Shown here piece after piece: positions 3,559-47,565 of a stretch of DNA of 64,000 nucleotides; the stretch's first letter is position 1, and each line of letters begins with the position of its first letter. A program made the translations under genes and the position numbers. This stretch comes from an uncultured Roseicyclus sp. Lineage in GTDB: Bacteria > Pseudomonadota > Alphaproteobacteria > Rhodobacterales > Rhodobacteraceae. Under the pieces are notes generated by a model that saw only the letters and a program-made list of their open reading frames with translations, did not search any database and was not told where the DNA came from. The DNA lies in contig CANLLF010000003.1 of NCBI GenBank assembly GCA_947491935.1, positions 580,397-644,396 of the forward strand, given 5' to 3'.

Positions 3559-4467
3559 ATGACCCAAACCTCCGTCAGCACCCGCGCATGGATCGAGATG
3601 GCCCTTCTGGCCGTGATCTGGGGCGCGTCGTTCCTGTCGATCAAGGTGGGGTTGGACGAGCTTCCTTTCCTGACCCTCGTGACGCACCGCGTGGTCTGGG
3701 CCTGCCTGATCCTGTGGGCCTACGTCCTGATCCGGCGCCTGCCCGTCCCCGGCAATTGGCGCATCTGGGGGGCGTTTCTGGTAATGGGCCTTCTCAACAA
3801 CGTCATCCCGTTCGCGCTCATGGCGTGGGGCCAGCAATTCATCGAAACGGGCCTGACATCCATCTTTAATGCCGGTACGGCAATCTTCGGGGTGCTCGTG
3901 GCCGCGCTGTTCTTTTCCGATGAACGCCTGACGCTGCGCAAGACCCTCGGCGTTCTGGTCGCCTTCTTCGGCGTGGCCGTCGCCATCGGGCTGGACAGTT
4001 TTCAGGCGTTCGATATCCGCTCGCTCGCGCAGTTGGCCGTGATCGGCGGCACGCTCTCCTACGCCTTCGCCGCCGCTTGGGCGCGCAAGACGATGCAGGG
4101 CCTCAGCCCGCAGGTTTCGGCTGCAGGGATGCTGACGGGCTCAAGCCTGATCCTGCTGCCGGCCGCAATCCTAATCGACGGCCTGCCACAGATCCCGGCC
4201 CTGCCCCGGACCTACGCCGCCATCGCCTATTTCTCGATCATCGGCACCGCCATGGCCTACCTGCTCTACTACCGCGTGCTGGCCAGTGCCGGATCTGGCA
4301 ACACGATGCTGGTGACCCTGATGATCCCTCCCGTGGCCATTGCCCTTGGCACTTGGGTTCTGGACGAACGGCTGGCGCCCTCGGCCTTTGTGGGCTTCGC
4401 GCTTCTGGCGCTCGGGCTCATCATCCTCGATGGGCGGGCACTGGCCCGGTTGCGCCAGCGCGCCTGA
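3559..4467 (+). CDS. DMT/EamA family transporter
   Basis: IWGASFL..K, NNVIPF.LMAWGQQFI.TGL.SI.NA motifs; 10 TM. Confidence 0.9.
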   Translation: MTQTSVSTRAWIEMALLAVIWGASFLSIKVGLDELPFLTLVTHRVVWACLILWAYVLIRRLPVPGNWRIWGAFLVMGLLNNVIPFALMAWGQQFIETGLTSIFNAGTAIFGVLVAALFFSDERLTLRKTLGVLVAFFGVAVAIGLDSFQAFDIRSLAQLAVIGGTLSYAFAAAWARKTMQGLSPQVSAAGMLTGSSLILLPAAILIDGLPQIPALPRTYAAIAYFSIIGTAMAYLLYYRVLASAGSGNTMLVTLMIPPVAIALGTWVLDERLAPSAFVGFALLALGLIILDGRALARLRQRA

Positions 4468-23654: not shown

Positions 23655-23718
23655 ATGACACGTGACATCGATGGGCGGGGCGCGCCAAACGCCAGGTAAC
23701 CGCGTCACAGCGCCGCCC

Positions 23719-23734
23719 GTATACAATGGTATAC
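23719..23734. promoter_or_regulatory. Operator-like palindrome upstream of monomeric IDH
   Basis: GTATAC-aatg-GTATAC. Confidence 0.45.
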
Positions 23735-23807
23735 ACCTCTTCCCTTTGGTCGACCAATCGTCTAACAGCAGCGATATCTCAGACCACCGGACCGGAGGGC
23801 ACGCGCC

Positions 23808-26000
23808 ATGACCAACCCAGACATCATCTACACCAAGGTCGACGAGGCGCCTGAACTGGCCTCCGCCTCACTGCTTCCGATCATCCAGCGCTTCGCCAAA
23901 GCCGCCGGGATCAGCGTGGGGACCAAGGATATCTCGCTGGCTGGCCGGATCCTGGCAACCTTCCCCGAGCATCTGGCCGAGGATCAGCGCATCCCCGACG
24001 ATCTCGCCGCTTTGGGTGAATTGGTCAAAACGCCCGAGGCCAACGTCATCAAGCTGCCCAACATCTCCGCGTCCGTCCCGCAACTCGTCGCGGCCGTGAC
24101 CGAATTGCAGGCCAAGGGATACGCCCTGCCCGACTATCCCGAAAGCCCGTCCACCGACGAAGAAAAGGCGATCCGCGCCAAGTATGACGGGATCAAGGGC
24201 TCCGCTGTGAACCCGGTCCTGCGCGAAGGCAACTCCGACCGCCGCGCCGCCGCCGCCGTGAAAAGCTACGCCCAGAACAACCCGCATCGCATGGGCAAAT
24301 GGAAAAGCGACAGCAAGACCCGCGTCGCGTCCATGTCCGGCGGAGATTTCTTTTCCAACGAAGTCTCGGTGACCCTGTCGGAGGCTACCGGCGCCAAGAT
24401 CGTCCTGGAAACCGCCAATGGCGAAACCGTTCTGAAAGAGGGCCTGTCCTACCCCGCCGGCACGGTTGTGGACGCAACCTACATGTCCGCCGCGGCGCTG
24501 GACGCCTTCCTTGCCGAGGAAATCGAGAAGACCAAGGCCGAGGGTGTCCTGTTCTCGCTTCACATGAAAGCCACGATGATGAAGGTCTCCGACCCCATCA
24601 TCTTTGGCCATGCCGTCAAAACCTTCCTTGCGCCCGTGTTCGACGCCCATGGCGACGCGATGAAGGCGCTTGGCGTGAACCCCAATTCCGGGCTCGGTGA
24701 CCTGCTGGAGCGGGTGAAGGACAGCCCCGAAATCTTTGAAGCGATTGATAAATGCATGGCCAACCGCCCGCCGATGTACATGGTCGACAGCGACAAGGGC
24801 ATCACCAACCTGCATGTGCCAAGCGACGTCATTATCGACGCCTCCATGCCCGCCCTGATCCGCGCCGGCGGCAAGGGCTGGGGCCCCGATGGGCAGGAGG
24901 CTGATGCCGTCTGCGTCATCCCCGACAATTCCTATGCCCCGGTCTATGACGAGACCATCGAATTCTTCAAAGCCAATGGCGCGCTCGACCCGGCCACCGC
25001 AGGCACTGTCCAGAACCTCGGCCTGATGGCCCAGAAGGCGGAGGAATACGGCTCCCACCCCACGACCTTCGAGATTGCTGAGGCTGGAACCGTCAAGATG
25101 ATCCTCGATGACGGCACCGTGCTCCACCAACAAGACGTCCAGCCCGGCGATATCTGGCGTTCCGCTTCCGCGCGCAAGGCCCCCATTGAGGATTGGGTGC
25201 AACTGGCCATCAGCCGCCAGAAGGCCACCGGTTACCGCTCCATCTTCTGGCTCGACGAGACCCGCGCCCACGACGCGCAGCTCATCGCTTACGTGAAGCC
25301 CATCCTCGAAGCCGCTGGTGTCGCTGACAAATTTGAGATCATGGCGCCCCGCGAAGCCACCCGCGCCTCGCTTGAAACCATCACGAAGGGTGAGAACACC
25401 ATCGCCATCACCGGAAACGTGCTGCGGGATTACCTGACCGACCTTTTCCCGATCCTGGAACTGGCGACGTCGGCAAAGATGCTCTCCATCGTGAAGCTGA
25501 TGCAGGGCGGCGGATTGTTCGAGACCGGTGCAGGCGGCTCGGCGCCCAAGCACGTCCAGCAGCTCCATGCCGAAAACCACCTGCGCTGGGACAGCCTTGG
25601 CGAATTCTGCGCTCTGGGCGAGAGCTTCAAGTTCCTGGCCGATGCCAAAGGCAATGCGAAAGCCCGCATCCTCGGCGACGCGGTGGAAAAAGCCACCCAA
25701 GGCATCCTCGACGACAACCGCTCGCCGGGCCGCAAGGTCGGCCTGCCCGACAACCGCGACAGCCATTACTGGTTCGCCCGCTATTGGGCCGAAGCGCTGG
25801 CCGCGTCCGACGACGCAGATTTTGCCGCCGAATTCGCCCCCGTTGCCCGGGCCCTGGCCGAGAACGAGGCGACCATCGTCGCCGAGCTTGATGCAGGCGC
25901 CGGTAAACCCGCAGATACCGGCGGTTATTACATGAACGACGGGGAGAAGCTGGCGGCAGTCATGCGGCCATCGGCGACGCTGAATTCAATTATCGGTTGA
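23808..26000 (+). CDS. idh: Monomeric NADP-dependent isocitrate dehydrogenase
   Basis: [52 protein letters not shown]; 730 aa. Confidence 0.97.
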
Positions 26001-36477: not shown

Positions 36478-37304
36478 ATCCGCGTCAGGATCGCCGCACC
36501 GGCCAACGTGTTGACCGTGTCGATCACGGCCAGCATCGCACGGATCGTGTATTCCCCGGCGAATGTGATCGTCTCGGAGAAGCCACCCGAAAACAGCACC
36601 AGAAAACCCGCCCCGGTGAGCAGCGCCTGCCCCACCAAGGCGAAGGCGGCAAGCCCGAGGATCGGCCATGTCAGCGCCCGGGTCCGCCGCCAAGACGCCC
36701 GCAGCCCCGGCGCGGTCGCCGCATCGATGGCCACGGCGGGCAGGCCCATGCTGATCCGAAACACCAGGGTGAGATAGGCAAACAACGCCAGGATGCCGAC
36801 CGCAATGCCAGCCACATAGAAGGCGGGCGTGGGTGAGGGATCAAGATAGACATCATAGGACAGCAGGTTCAGGAGCAACTGCCCCAGAAGCGGATCCAGC
36901 ACAGATCCCAGCAGGAACAGCGGAAGCAGGACGCAAAGAAACACCGCCAGCCCCGCAATCACGCTGATGATGATCCAGGCGACGAGATACCGCCCCCAGT
37001 TCCGCCATCTCATCTTCGGCAGAAACGTATCCGGGGTCTCCGCGACGAGCATGTGCCGATGCCAAGAGACCGCAAGCACCGCGAGCAGCAGGAAGAAGGC
37101 GAGCGTCCCGATCACTTCCCCCGGCGGTCCGGTGATCAGCGTTGTATCGTTGAACCATTGCACGTAGGCCCGGCTGAGCGGCACTTCGATCAGCAGATAG
37201 GCCAGAAGCGGCAGCGCGGCGATCCGCAGGACCGCACCGGGGGCGCGGATCAGGTCGGCGATGGCGCCGAAGAACAGGCTTTGGGAGGTGACGGGCGCGG
37301 ACAT
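36444..37304 (-). CDS. Integral membrane hypothetical protein
   Basis: About 6 TM; AVSWHRHMLV.E, YL..RISMGLPAVA motifs; convergent 34-nt overlap with regulator. Confidence 0.7.
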   Translation of the reverse strand: MSAPVTSQSLFFGAIADLIRAPGAVLRIAALPLLAYLLIEVPLSRAYVQWFNDTTLITGPPGEVIGTLAFFLLLAVLAVSWHRHMLVAETPDTFLPKMRWRNWGRYLVAWIIISVIAGLAVFLCVLLPLFLLGSVLDPLLGQLLLNLLSYDVYLDPSPTPAFYVAGIAVGILALFAYLTLVFRISMGLPAVAIDAATAPGLRASWRRTRALTWPILGLAAFALVGQALLTGAGFLVLFSGGFSETITFAGEYTIRAMLAVIDTVNTLAGAAILTRIYRAVEPVPEA

Positions 37305-37443
37305 GGGCCATTCCTTGCGCATTCCGGCCTGGGGCTGCAAGCCGCATTCCGCAGCAGCCCAAATCCCCTTGCCGCACCCCGCGCCGCGCCCTACTGTCTC
37401 CGGCAGTCTGACACTCAAAAACCGCCAACAGGGACAAGATAAA

Positions 37444-38481
37444 ATGACGAGAATCACACTTCTGAGTTCTGCCGCCGCACTGGCCTTTGCGGCCCCCGCT
37501 GCCGCGCAACAGCTCACCGTCTTCGACTATTCCGGGTTCGAAGACCCCTCCTTCCACCAGCCCTATATCGACACACATGGCGCGGGTCCGGAATTCGTGT
37601 TTTTCGGCGATGAGGACGAGGCGTTTCAGCGGCTTCTGGCGGGTTTCCAATCGGATGTGACGCATATCTGCGCGGGCTCCGTGCCGCGCTGGCAGGCGTC
37701 TGGCATCATCGAGGCCTGGGACACCGACCAGATCGCCGCCTTCGAGACGCTGAATGCCGATCTGGTGGGCCAAGACGTGCTTGCGGGCAGCGAGGAGCTG
37801 TTCTTCCTGCCAACCGATTATGGCTCCACCGCCGTGGCGTACAACGCCGATGAACTGGCCGCCGAGGATGTCGCCAGCCTGGAGATCTTCAACAACCCGG
37901 CCTATGCGGGCCGCCTGTCGATCCCCGACAATGTCGATGACGCCTACGCCCTGGCCTATCTCGCCACCGGCGTCACGGATTGGGCGGATGTCAGCGATGC
38001 GGAGTTCGAGGCCGCCACCGATTGGCTGCGCGGCATCCACCAGAACCTGCGCACCTATTGGACCGACCCCGCCGAGATCAGCCAGTTGATGGGTTCGGGC
38101 GAGGTTCTGGCCGCCTGGGTCTGGAACGAAGTGCCCGTGGCTCTGGCCGAAGAAGGCTTCCCCGTGGGCTATGCCCGCAACACCGCCGAGGGCACATCCG
38201 TGTGGCTCTGCGGCTATGTGAACATGGTCGAGGCCCCGTCGGATGAGGCGCTGGCCTATGACTACGTGAACGCGATCCTGTCCGACGGCTCCGCCGGCCC
38301 GCTTCTGGGCAACGGGTTTGGCTCCGCCAATGACGCCGCGCTGCAGGCGCTCGGGGCCGAGGCGATGGAAGCCGCGGGCCTCGGCGAAGTCACGGTTCCG
38401 GTTCTGGCGCAGCTGCCGATTTCCAACGAGCAGCGCGAACGCCAGGCGGAGGCCTTCGAGCGGATCAAGGCCGGGTTCTGA
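37444..38481 (+). CDS. PotD/PotF-type ABC substrate-binding protein
   Basis: Signal peptide; LTVFDYSGFEDP, FLPTDYGST.VAYN, SVWLCGYV; no permease adjacent. Confidence 0.85.
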   Translation: MTRITLLSSAAALAFAAPAAAQQLTVFDYSGFEDPSFHQPYIDTHGAGPEFVFFGDEDEAFQRLLAGFQSDVTHICAGSVPRWQASGIIEAWDTDQIAAFETLNADLVGQDVLAGSEELFFLPTDYGSTAVAYNADELAAEDVASLEIFNNPAYAGRLSIPDNVDDAYALAYLATGVTDWADVSDAEFEAATDWLRGIHQNLRTYWTDPAEISQLMGSGEVLAAWVWNEVPVALAEEGFPVGYARNTAEGTSVWLCGYVNMVEAPSDEALAYDYVNAILSDGSAGPLLGNGFGSANDAALQALGAEAMEAAGLGEVTVPVLAQLPISNEQRERQAEAFERIKAGF

Positions 38482-38543: not shown

Positions 38544-38576
38544 GGTTTCAGGATGTTGCAGCACGACGCTCACAAG

Positions 38577-38606
38577 AAAAAACGCGCTTGGGTCGCCCCA
38601 GCGCGT
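38577..38606 (-). terminator. Minus-strand intrinsic terminator
   Basis: ACGCGC-UGGG-GCGA-CCCA-A-GCGCGU-UUUUU. Confidence 0.85.
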
Positions 38607-38771
38607 CTCAGGTAGATTGTCGTTTTTGTCCTGCCGTCCGGCACAACCTTTTTTGTTACTCTTGCCGCCGCAGCCGCGACACGGGTAAGTCGACCGCGGC
38701 CGCAAGAGTGTGAGGTTGGCGAAGTGATTTCCGGATCACTCCGGGCACGCTTCAACCGCTTCGCCAGCCCC
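38577..38771 (-). ncRNA. Candidate ~195-nt structured small RNA (no family recognised)
   Basis: Own promoter TTGTCG-N17-TATACA; 13-bp 5' stem starting at the predicted +1; second long hairpin; A-rich linker; terminator with GCGA tetraloop and U6. Confidence 0.55.
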
Positions 38772-38807
38772 ATATACGTGTATACAGGTTGCGCCATATC
38801 CCGACAA
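38771..38807 (-). promoter_or_regulatory. sigma70-type promoter with overlapping TATAC-N3-TATA(C/T) box
   Basis: -35 at 38807-38802, -10 at 38784-38779, 17-nt spacer; box ACCTGTATACACGTATATG. Confidence 0.55.
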
Positions 38808-38864
38808 GTGAATTCGAATGCAAGATTGTTTTTCGGCTGAAATACGGTTGAAGGGTCCTGGGCA

Positions 38865-39461
38865 TCACCCCCGGGCGCCCGCCTCCTGCGCCAAAAGCCA
38901 CGCCTCCTGATCCTCGCTCTCGACGGCTTCGGGGAAATGGCCGCGCACAATATCCATCGCCTGCACCGCCCCCAAACCGGCCTCCATCAGGGTCCAGGAC
39001 GCCATCAACCCGCTGCGCCCGGCCCCGTATTGGCACGAGAATGCGAGCGTTCCGCCGCCCCGCAATAGGGCCTGCCGCTCGGCGCGCCCATCCTCCCAGA
39101 TTCGCCGCAGATCGTCGGAGGGCACGGAATAGTCAACAATAGGAAAGTGCCGAACGGCCAGGCCCAGACCCTTGGCCGTCCGCTCCAGAAGCGCGAAGCC
39201 GATCTCGTCCAACTCATCCCGCTCGACTAGGACGATGAGCATACGGGTTCCGTGGGCCGCAAGGCCTTTCAACGTGTCCTCGCAGCTTTCCGGTGTGAAT
39301 ACGGCAGATCCGTCAAAGCCGGTATCGAGGCCGGGAAACCCGGCCATGGCAATTTTTCCACCATGGGGATGGGGGATGATCGCCCGGATGGACCCCGGCA
39401 AACCAATTGAATTGTCGATAATTCTTCCTTCAGTCTTCCACGGCTGCACGCAGGCGGCCAC
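38865..39461 (-). CDS. Cys-dependent (CX5R) dual-specificity/tyrosine phosphatase-like protein
   Basis: HFPIVDYSVP (general-acid loop), SCQYGAGRSG P-loop, AVESEDQE; start uncertain. Confidence 0.8.
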   Translation of the reverse strand: MAACVQPWKTEGRIIDNSIGLPGSIRAIIPHPHGGKIAMAGFPGLDTGFDGSAVFTPESCEDTLKGLAAHGTRMLIVLVERDELDEIGFALLERTAKGLGLAVRHFPIVDYSVPSDDLRRIWEDGRAERQALLRGGGTLAFSCQYGAGRSGLMASWTLMEAGLGAVQAMDIVRGHFPEAVESEDQEAWLLAQEAGARG

Positions 39462-39471
39462 TGTGCTTTAC

Positions 39472-39490
39472 ACCTGTATACGGTTATACG
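39472..39490 (+). promoter_or_regulatory. Operator-like box in GntR/phosphatase divergent promoter
   Basis: ACCTGTATACGGTTATACG, 15/19 identical to the box at 38789-38771. Confidence 0.55.
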
Positions 39491-39534: not shown

Positions 39535-40149
39535 ATGCCCAAACACAATGCCGCTACGATTGCCGATGCGTTGCGCAAACGCATTTGCCTTGAGCCGCCC
39601 ACCGCAAGCCCGGTTCTCCATGAACAGACGCTGGCGATCGAATTCGGCGTCTCCCGCACGCCGGTGCGTCAGGCGCTGCAACGGCTGGCCTATGAGCGGC
39701 TGGTTGAGGTGCGCTCGGGCGTGGGCACGGTCGTCTCCCCTCTCGATGAAGGGCGGCGCGACGATGACATCAAGCTGGCCTTCGCCCTGCTGCGGGTGGC
39801 CGCCGAGATCGAGGGCGACCGGCCGCTTTCGGTTGAGGTGAACACCTATATCAACGCGCTGGAACGGCAGGTCAGCGCGGCGGATACCATCGATCTCGAA
39901 ACCAATTTCACGATCCGGGCCACCTCCCTGCAGATGATCACCGACGAGATGTCGAACGATATCCTGGGCGAGGCGCTGAAAGCCGCCCTCTGGCGGCTGT
40001 TCCGCTGGCGCATGGCCGAGGCCGCCGCGGCACCGTCGGGCATCGACGGGCGGCTGCGCGAGGTCATGGCCCGGATGGCCGCCGCCACCCGCGTCGGCAC
40101 GATGCGCGCTCTTCTGGAGGCCCAGCATCAATCCCCTGCAACCCCTTGA
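39535..40149 (+). CDS. GntR family regulator
   Basis: LHEQTLA.EFGVSRTPVRQALQRLAYE.LV. Confidence 0.85.
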   Translation: MPKHNAATIADALRKRICLEPPTASPVLHEQTLAIEFGVSRTPVRQALQRLAYERLVEVRSGVGTVVSPLDEGRRDDDIKLAFALLRVAAEIEGDRPLSVEVNTYINALERQVSAADTIDLETNFTIRATSLQMITDEMSNDILGEALKAALWRLFRWRMAEAAAAPSGIDGRLREVMARMAAATRVGTMRALLEAQHQSPATP

Positions 40150-40174
40150 AATCAAGGCCGCGCCTCCGTATGTC
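40146..40174 (+). promoter_or_regulatory. Probable ssrA promoter
   Basis: TTGAAA-N17-TATGTC about 25 nt before the acceptor piece. Confidence 0.55.
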
Positions 40175-40197
40175 TTGAGGGTCTCTTCGGGGACTAT

Positions 40198-40497
40198 GGA
40201 CATAAACGCGCTCGTAATAAGCGGATCGGACCCGGGGGCGGTACCCGGCGGCTCCACCAACCACTCCCTCGTTTGGGGACAGATGGGGCCGAAATAGGAT
40301 CGACGAACGTCTAAAGGGGTTAGCTTTGTCCCGGTGAGTTACCACCGTTATCGGTACACATTGTACAGTTGCAAATGACAACCGTGCTCCGGCAATGGCT
40401 CTCGCAGCGTAAGCTGTCCTGAGTCGCCGACTTTAAGCCCAGTTCTCTAGCCAGAGCTGGCGGGGCCCGCCGGAGCCTGGCAACAGAATCCGGCACC
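40198..40497 (+). ncRNA. ssrA: Circularly permuted two-piece tmRNA
   Basis: Acceptor piece ending ...gggggcggtacccggcggctccACCA (40259), spacer, coding piece starting GGGGCCGAAATAGGATCGAC (40285); tag ANDNRAPAMALAA* at 40371-40412; ends approximate. Confidence 0.95.
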
Positions 40498-40773
40498 TTC
40501 AAACAATTCAGGCACCTGGCACCGGAAGCCTGCTTTTGGCCCACAGTGAGCTTTGAGATTTAGCGCGGTTAATCCAGGCCCCGTCGGCGACGCCTTTTGC
40601 GGTGCAAAGACGCTGGGGCAACAGAAGCCTGCACTTTCTCTCAATACCGTCTCATGTCCCGCGCCCGCGCCCGTCTGCTGCGCGTGCCATGCCACTTTTT
40701 TCATCCGCAAGTGATCCGATCGGCCAGACCGCCCGTTTACTTATTATGCAAGCAACAAAAGACCGGACATTCC

Positions 40774-47332: not shown

Positions 47333-47565
47333 TGCCCGACGCCCGCCCCCGCAAACGCTCGCTGACATTGCAGGGTCATCGCACAAGCGTTTCGCTTGAA
47401 GATGCGTTCTGGGAGGAGTTGCTGGCACTGGCCGAGGTGCGGGGGCTCTCCGTGAATGCGCTCGTCGCCGAAATTGACGCCGAGCGCGGTGTCTCGGCCG
47501 GGCTCGCCTCGGCCATCCGGGTCCATATCCTACAGCAGTTGAAGAATCGTCTCAGCGACGGGTAA
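47332..47565 (+). CDS. Ribbon-helix-helix domain protein
   Basis: RKRSLTLQGHRTSVSLEDAFW, LASAIRV. Confidence 0.9.
   Translation: MPDARPRKRSLTLQGHRTSVSLEDAFWEELLALAEVRGLSVNALVAEIDAERGVSAGLASAIRVHILQQLKNRLSDG

Follow-up and report, generated by a model that had tools for sequence, protein, structure and literature searches.

Our analysis establishes a structured RNA gene on the minus strand of the window (the whole 64,000-nt stretch of DNA analysed here), together with its strand, its non-coding nature and the conservation of its promoter and operator-like sequence. The element is a known kind of thing, an sRNA, and it is a new family restricted to one clade; it thereby gives the Roseobacter-group bacteria, in which few sRNAs have been characterised, a new RNA family. 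It extends from 38807 to 38577 and begins with a -35/-10 pair, after which come three structured domains and, at the far end, a U6 terminator. The RNA is ~195 nt long in the window and ~190-290 nt in relatives. The first-pass annotation had proposed an unannotated small RNA gene of ~195 nt at this place, and the covariation, together with the conservation in 11 other genomes, shows that it did not arise from chance resemblance. The layout that had been described, a gap between convergent genes with a -35/-10 pair, helices, a long hairpin, a linker and a terminator, holds at all coordinates when the sequence is read directly and folded. The genes and promoter elements of the locus are as follows:

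Stop at 38481, plus strand: SBP gene, encoding a PotD-like substrate-binding protein (Pfam/NCBIfam).
38771-38789, minus strand: operator-like box ACCTGTATACACGTATATG, with the core palindrome TGTATACA at 38786-38779.
38802-38807, minus strand: -35 hexamer TTGTCG, its TTG invariant in 12/12 genomes.
38865-39461, minus strand: PTPase-like gene, encoding a small PTP/DSP-like Cys-phosphatase with the active-site motif CQYGAGR (Pfam PF22785).
39472-39490, plus strand: operator-like box ACCTGTATACGGTTATACG, the second of the two, 54 nt 5' of the gntR ATG in the region of the divergent gntR/PTPase promoters.
39535-40149, plus strand: gntR, divergent from the PTPase gene, encoding a GntR-family regulator of 204 aa (Pfam GntR, 3.8e-15).
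40142-40497, plus strand: two-piece alphaproteobacterial (alpha-)tmRNA gene (RF01849, 273.9 bits).

Read directly from the sequence, the convergent SBP and PTPase genes are separated by a 383-bp gap. The PTPase gene is upstream of the RNA element on the same strand, and 90 nt lie between its stop codon and the RNA. PDB sequence matches identify archaeal-type PTPs as the nearest solved relatives of this Cys-phosphatase. The start codon of the PTPase gene is uncertain, being either 39461 (GTG, the long form) or 39347 (the 160-aa form on record); in the relatives an ATG is found ~22-28 nt 3' of the box. Judged against 10 relatives, the start of the SBP gene is at 37444 (MTRITLL...) and not at 37261.

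With the phosphatase as the anchor, 12 relatives were fetched, and 11 of them keep the gene order, in which gntR and the PTPase gene diverge and the SBP gene converges on the PTPase gene across a gap of 315-445 bp. The element is present in this same PTPase/SBP gap in all 11 order-keeping relatives, down to a PTPase identity of 49%. The carriers are a Roseicyclus MAG, five Gymnodinialimonas, Jannaschia sp. EhC01, M385, HKCCE4037, Hasllibacter sp. MH4015 and one further MAG; the window and these 11 carriers make up our alignment. Cultured carriers include G. ceratoperidinii, G. hymeniacidonis, G. ulvae, Hasllibacter sp. MH4015 and the strains M385 and 57CJ19. In a Pseudooceanicola sp. (L013 2297-3576), there is a gntR-PTPase pair without a GTATAC box or the RNA core at the locus; its GntR is 41% identical, and a convergent peroxiredoxin gene follows 22 nt past the PTPase gene. 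The conserved part consists of the promoter and a core of ~115 nt, whereas neither the spacer from the PTPase stop to the -35 nor the distal tail is conserved. Our covariance model R1, derived from this alignment, found one copy per locus, scoring 94-128 bits in the 11 orthologs, and nothing further in the 64-kb window. Two pattern scans for extra copies in metagenome contigs gave none or three chance matches (L008-L010), a scan of viral contigs gave one chance match only (L016, 14.7 bits), and no match to the element was found among the PLSDB plasmids.

The RNA itself can be divided into the following parts:

38655-38775, minus strand: conserved RNA core, formed by domain 1 (P1 and P2) and domain 2 (P3); 115.9 bits with covariance model R1.
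38745-38753, minus strand: 9-nt bulge GAAGCGUGC between P1 and P2, invariant in 12/12 genomes.
38731-38744, minus strand: P2 hairpin CCGGA-GUGA-UCCGG, with a GNRA tetraloop in 12/12 genomes.
38658-38709, minus strand: P3, a long hairpin with compensatory changes at 12/17 pairs.
38688-38681, minus strand: apical loop UUACCCGU of P3, nearly invariant in its UACCCGU part.
38610-38657, minus strand: variable 3' part, in the fold an A-rich linker and another linker with the small P4 hairpin (38647-38628) between them.
38577-38609, minus strand: intrinsic terminator, a GC stem capped by a GCGA loop, with U6 after it (38582-38577), from sequence and fold.

The minimum free energy fold of the element calculated with RNAfold is the architecture described above, at -96.3 kcal/mol; its z-score is -5.6, and none of 200 dinucleotide shuffles folds as well. 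The P1 helix, GGGGCUGGCGAAG paired with CUUCGCCAACCUC, encloses two inner helices, and its GGGG start is at 38771. RNAalifold analysis of the 12-sequence core alignment gave a consensus of 32 pairs. Standard pairs fill 93.2% of the pair cells, compared with 84.0 ± 0.9% in shuffled alignments and 34-46% when the partners are slid by 1-3 columns. Eighteen of the 32 pairs are changed on both sides, compared with 8.5 ± 1.9 after shuffling (0/500 reach 18) and 5-10 after sliding. Sequence and structure are both conserved, with covariation. The same pairs also fix the strand: G-U cells number 44 on the minus (sense) strand and 2 on the opposite one, where non-pairs rise from 26 to 68, and therefore the minus strand of the window is the RNA strand. 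Between the window and L001 (94% identical), there are 9 substitutions in the RNA, of which 4 are in stems and all keep pairing, 3 are in loops (2 keep GNRA), 1 is in a bulge and 1 is in a linker.

The single-stranded parts of the core are conserved in a different manner. The bulge, with its flank as U(U/G)GAAGCGUGC, is kept in 12/12 genomes and is unpaired in both the minimum free energy and the consensus folds, making it a candidate seed or protein-contact site. The UACCCGU loop of P3 is unchanged in the 12 genomes except in L003. In P2, one pair covaries from C-G to U-A in 3 genomes, and its loop is found among the 12 genomes as GUGA, GCGA, GUAA, GAAA, GAGA or GCAA, all of them GNRA. The invariant bulge and loop offer precise sites for mutagenesis. 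Both contain CGUG. A pseudoknot between the bulge and loop 2 was considered by eye, and no convincing complementarity was seen.

The sequence upstream of the core has the features of a promoter that would belong to the RNA alone, as the first-pass annotation had suggested. TTGTCG (38807-38802) and TATACA (38784-38779) are separated by a 17-nt spacer, and the GGGG follows 7 nt later. In 12/12 genomes, TTG lies 16-17 nt from TATACA, and an A/T-rich tract just 5' of the -35 stands out in otherwise GC-rich DNA. P1 starts 5-11 nt past the -10 in 9/12 orthologs. From this spacing we infer a start site ~7 nt past the -10, with a predicted 5' end at about 38772-38770. Both the promoter and the terminator escaped a simple consensus scanner, whose rules are broken by the final A of the -10 and by a bulge in the stem of the terminator.

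The other end of the RNA is more variable. The terminator that had been described in the window, a stem followed by U6, is there, and a dedicated intrinsic terminator is found in 7/12 genomes. These 7 genomes share a 3' module, consisting of the P4 hairpin, an ACCUGARACGCG...CGCGUUUUU(U)CUU terminator with compensatory changes, and U5-6; the hairpin at the P4 position is kept in 7 genomes, with differing sequence. In L004-L006 the tail is longer and unrelated, and a distal bidirectional terminator closes it, and in L002 and L003 no clear sense-strand U-tract terminator was found. The first-pass annotation took the A-rich linker for a contact of Hfq; the A-run of this linker occurs only in the window and L001, and a U-tail is present. 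Hfq dependence is not well supported. Of additional note, positions 3765-3843 (+) of L004 gave a sub-threshold match to BjrC68, a Bradyrhizobiaceae sRNA, which scored 23.9 bits where 39 is the gathering score (E = 0.029). This BjrC68-like stretch in the M385-type long tail could be a second RNA module or a terminator only.

The -10 hexamer TATACA sits within the TGTATACA palindrome, and a related box had been reported at the GntR promoter. We found it at 39472-39490 (+): ACCTGTATACGGTTATACG is identical to ACCTGTATACACGTATATG at 15/19 positions, and the two boxes flank the PTPase gene, ~700 bp apart. GTATAC occurs 4 times in the 64 kb, where 1.47 occurrences are expected. It is present at the sRNA -10 in 12/12 genomes, and the other box lies 50-56 nt 5' of gntR, again in 12/12. 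Within each locus of 6.5-8.6 kb, GTATAC is found only at the sRNA promoter and in the gntR region; L007, L012 and L015 have one extra GTATAC, located at the sRNA -35. The TGTATACA box fits the operator consensus of the FadR subfamily, NyGTM-N0-1-KACNy (PMC4494728). Its core is also identical to that of the operator of Atu1419 from Agrobacterium fabrum, 5'-ATGTATACAT-3', which was proven by EMSA and crystal structures and, in the promoters under its control, overlaps the -10 boxes (PMC7797058). Compared with ATGTATACAT, the sRNA box agrees at 10/10 positions in L002, L004 and L006, at 9/10 in six genomes, and at 8/10 in the window, L001 and L011.

Pfam recognised only the GntR domain, and no effector domain, in the regulator. 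Its AlphaFold (AF2) model, with a pLDDT of 88.8, matches VanR/FCD structures over the full length in Foldseek, and the top matches are the Atu1419 VanR chains (E = 4e-7). GntR thus models as a VanR/FadR-type protein, with a winged helix-turn-helix and an all-helical FCD-like domain. The Atu1419 regulon (PMC7797058) resembles the present one in having the same palindrome over the -10 box, a further copy of the box in the regulator's own promoter region and a regulator of the same modelled fold. It differs in that the two regulators share only ~20% sequence identity, and in that catabolic enzymes are controlled there, whereas a non-coding RNA and a phosphatase would be controlled here. Since the palindrome is shared between the boxes, the model is VanR-like, and the box agrees with the Atu1419 operator and the FadR consensus, control of the sRNA by the neighbouring GntR, already suspected in the first-pass annotation, is well supported. 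With similarly good support, we infer that gntR, the phosphatase gene and the RNA would be repressed jointly by GntR. This provides a ready regulatory hypothesis, in which a VanR-type repressor would act at a defined operator and its regulon would include gntR, the phosphatase gene, the RNA and perhaps icd.

Based on these results, we propose a mechanism to which we give somewhat better than even chances: an sRNA gene with its own start and a GntR-repressed promoter, whose product most likely acts in trans. A sigma-70-type promoter (cTTG-N16/17-TATACA) would start transcription ~7 nt before P1, and the TGTATACA palindrome around its -10 would be the operator for the adjacent VanR/FadR-type GntR. 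Since the operator has a second copy where the gntR and PTPase promoters diverge, gntR, the phosphatase gene and the RNA would all be held off by one repressor, and the binding of a ligand would release all of them. The RNA would then present two invariant single-stranded elements on its two covarying domains, the bulge GAAGCGUGC beside the GNRA hairpin and the apical loop UACCCGU. Through the bulge and the loop, it may pair in trans with mRNAs, the icd start region being one candidate. We put forward the repression by GntR, the action in trans and any target as conditional parts of this scheme; unlike the control by GntR, an action in trans or as a sponge, which the first-pass annotation had proposed, is not well supported.

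The icd lead comes from the only other GTATAC sites in the 64-kb window:

23716-23736 (sites at 23719 and 23729): tandem GTATAC pair cGTATACaatgGTATACacc, ~80 nt 5' of icd.

This intergenic pair has a 114-aa gene/MCP operon (-) on one side and icd (23808-26000, +) on the other; icd encodes a monomeric isocitrate dehydrogenase and has the start region GGAGGGCACGCGCCAUG. Between the Shine-Dalgarno sequence and the AUG of icd, GGGCACGC (23797-23804) is the exact complement of the bulge GAAGCGUGC. Since the complementary 8-mer is found at ~13 loci in 128 kb (both strands), the chance of one such 8-mer in the icd start region is <1%; the icd match is a single 8-mer, and when 66 genes were scanned for pairing energy with permissive settings, icd shared fifth place. 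We regard icd as a weak lead, and it is rather doubtful as a target of the RNA. An apparent match to loop 2 was seen at 47558; it lies antisense to a P450 gene, at the 3' end of that gene, and was rejected.

The neighbouring genes gave no such lead. When the core was compared with the start regions of the SBP, gntR and PTPase genes in 11 genomes, z ranged from -2.0 to +1.5, and none exceeded the shuffled controls. The first-pass annotation had named potD as a possible target, and this idea is unsupported, because there is no start-region complementarity above the shuffles and no GTATAC box at the SBP gene. A different motif, CAGTCTGA / GCCAGTCTGAC, is found upstream of the SBP gene in the window (~37400-37415) and in 10 relatives, in which it lies ~35-45 nt before the SBP start. 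Having this distinct motif and not the GTATAC box, the SBP gene probably answers to another regulator.

Another possibility, to which we assign a modest but real chance, is that the RNA acts via a protein or a ligand in place of base-pairing to mRNAs. Together with the bulge and the loop, the GNRA hairpin would then form a binding surface that titrates a protein, is acted on by one or senses a ligand, and the co-regulated Cys-phosphatase would be one candidate partner. In agreement with this idea, conservation reaches 100% over long single-stranded stretches, whereas the helices covary freely, P2 has a GNRA loop in every one of the 12 genomes, no convincing complementarity to neighbouring genes was seen, and the RNA and the phosphatase gene adjoin and share the operator in 12 genomes. 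However, the seeds of sRNAs just as typically show up as conserved single-stranded stretches. Neither a known protein-binding motif nor an Rfam match was recognised in the RNA, and Pseudooceanicola has the GntR-PTPase pair without the RNA. Even so, the combination of an invariant bulge with a GNRA loop is closer to what is seen in protein-binding or tertiary-folded RNAs than to a typical seed, and these three elements leave room for a protein-linked role of the RNA.

A more specific form of this idea, which we consider improbable, is that the structured RNA works with the co-regulated Cys-phosphatase and is not a base-pairing sRNA. The Cys-phosphatase fold includes RNA 5'-tri/diphosphatases such as PIR1/DUSP11. 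The enzyme could strip the 5' triphosphate from the RNA, switching its stability or activity, or the RNA could bind the enzyme and gate it. If this were true, the locus would be a GntR-controlled module of an RNA and an enzyme, possibly tied to icd and hence to central carbon flow.

The position of the RNA behind the PTPase gene raises the question of whether it is mainly the structured 3' UTR of the PTPase mRNA, serving to stabilise that transcript or to end it, or being released from it by cleavage. In that case the apparent promoter would be an operator site only, for example as the partner of the gntR site in a DNA loop. The RNA is on the same strand, 90 nt past the PTPase stop, and since no terminator separates the two, read-through from the PTPase gene is possible. 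Atu1419-type tetramers can loop DNA between two palindromes (PMC7797058), and the two boxes here flank the PTPase gene, one on each side. An operator alone, however, would need neither the spacing of 16-17 nt to the -35 TTG nor the A/T tract, both of which are kept in 12/12 genomes. P1 begins at the predicted start site, and the spacer from the PTPase stop to the -35 is unconserved even between the window and L001. We therefore hold this explanation to be rather unlikely, and return to the proposed sRNA with its own start.

DapZ and MicL belong to the Type I 3'-UTR-associated sRNAs, a class that is transcribed from a promoter of its own but has its terminator in common with the upstream mRNA. 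The window RNA is like them in that it lies directly 3' of a same-strand gene with no terminator between, appears to have its own promoter, and ends at what would be the terminator of the mRNA too. It is different in that its promoter is intergenic and not within the coding sequence.

Convergent transcription is a further explanation, and a very improbable one: the promoter would fire in the direction of the SBP 3' end, lowering SBP expression by collision or by antisense pairing. The convergent arrangement with the SBP gene is indeed kept in 12 genomes, and L002 and L003 are without a sense-strand U-tract before the SBP terminator. Against this, 7/12 genomes have the dedicated terminator, with a separate SBP terminator after it, and the covarying helices and invariant loops would be left unexplained. 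That the element encodes a small protein, either the ORF at 38570-38950 that overlaps it or a shorter peptide, has next to no probability: a frame is open in the window, but no reading frame is conserved among the 12 orthologs, in which the distance between invariant blocks is 0, 2 or 1 mod 3, stops occur in every frame (in at least 4/12 orthologs each), the ATG is not conserved and substitutions track base pairing and not codons, and with no Pfam hit either, the ORF was ruled out as a gene.

The RNA belongs to none of the families with which we compared it. In agreement with the first-pass annotation, which recognised no Rfam family, covariance-model searches against Rfam 15 gave no match on the element in the window at E <= 10, nor at the gathering score in the 64 kb. 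At four orthologous loci searched at E <= 1, the only matches were the tmRNA and the sub-threshold BjrC68 in the L004 tail. A literature search for the invariant sequences returned unrelated primers only, and none of the described Roseobacter/Jannaschia sRNAs matches the element.

AbcR1/2 are alphaproteobacterial sRNAs that regulate the mRNAs of ABC-transporter binding proteins. The window RNA is likewise an alphaproteobacterial sRNA and stands beside the gene of an ABC-type substrate-binding protein. It differs from AbcR1/2 in having neither an Rfam hit nor a conserved anti-Shine-Dalgarno seed, and its complementarity to the SBP start is not above that of shuffled controls.

The sRNAs known to be controlled by GntR-family regulators include Yfr2 under PMM1637 in Prochlorococcus (PMC6191309) and RydC (PMC11340327). 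They and the window RNA would have in common an sRNA promoter under a GntR-family transcription factor. The differences are that neither shows sequence or structure similarity to the window RNA, and that the regulator in the window is adjacent and appears to be autoregulated via the same box.

On the far side of gntR, the tmRNA gene abuts the end of the GntR gene, and the same arrangement is found in L003, L004, L007 and L011. The 3' flank of ssrA contains direct repeats. In the window (40479-40656), there are 2 copies, 138 nt apart and with 73% identity, and G. ulvae (L012 1602-1960) has at least 3 copies with a 101-nt period and 89-90% identity. The period of these repeats is ~100 nt, and similar steps are seen in L011 and L014. 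They could be remnants of islands that once integrated at ssrA, or else an array of tandem RNAs.
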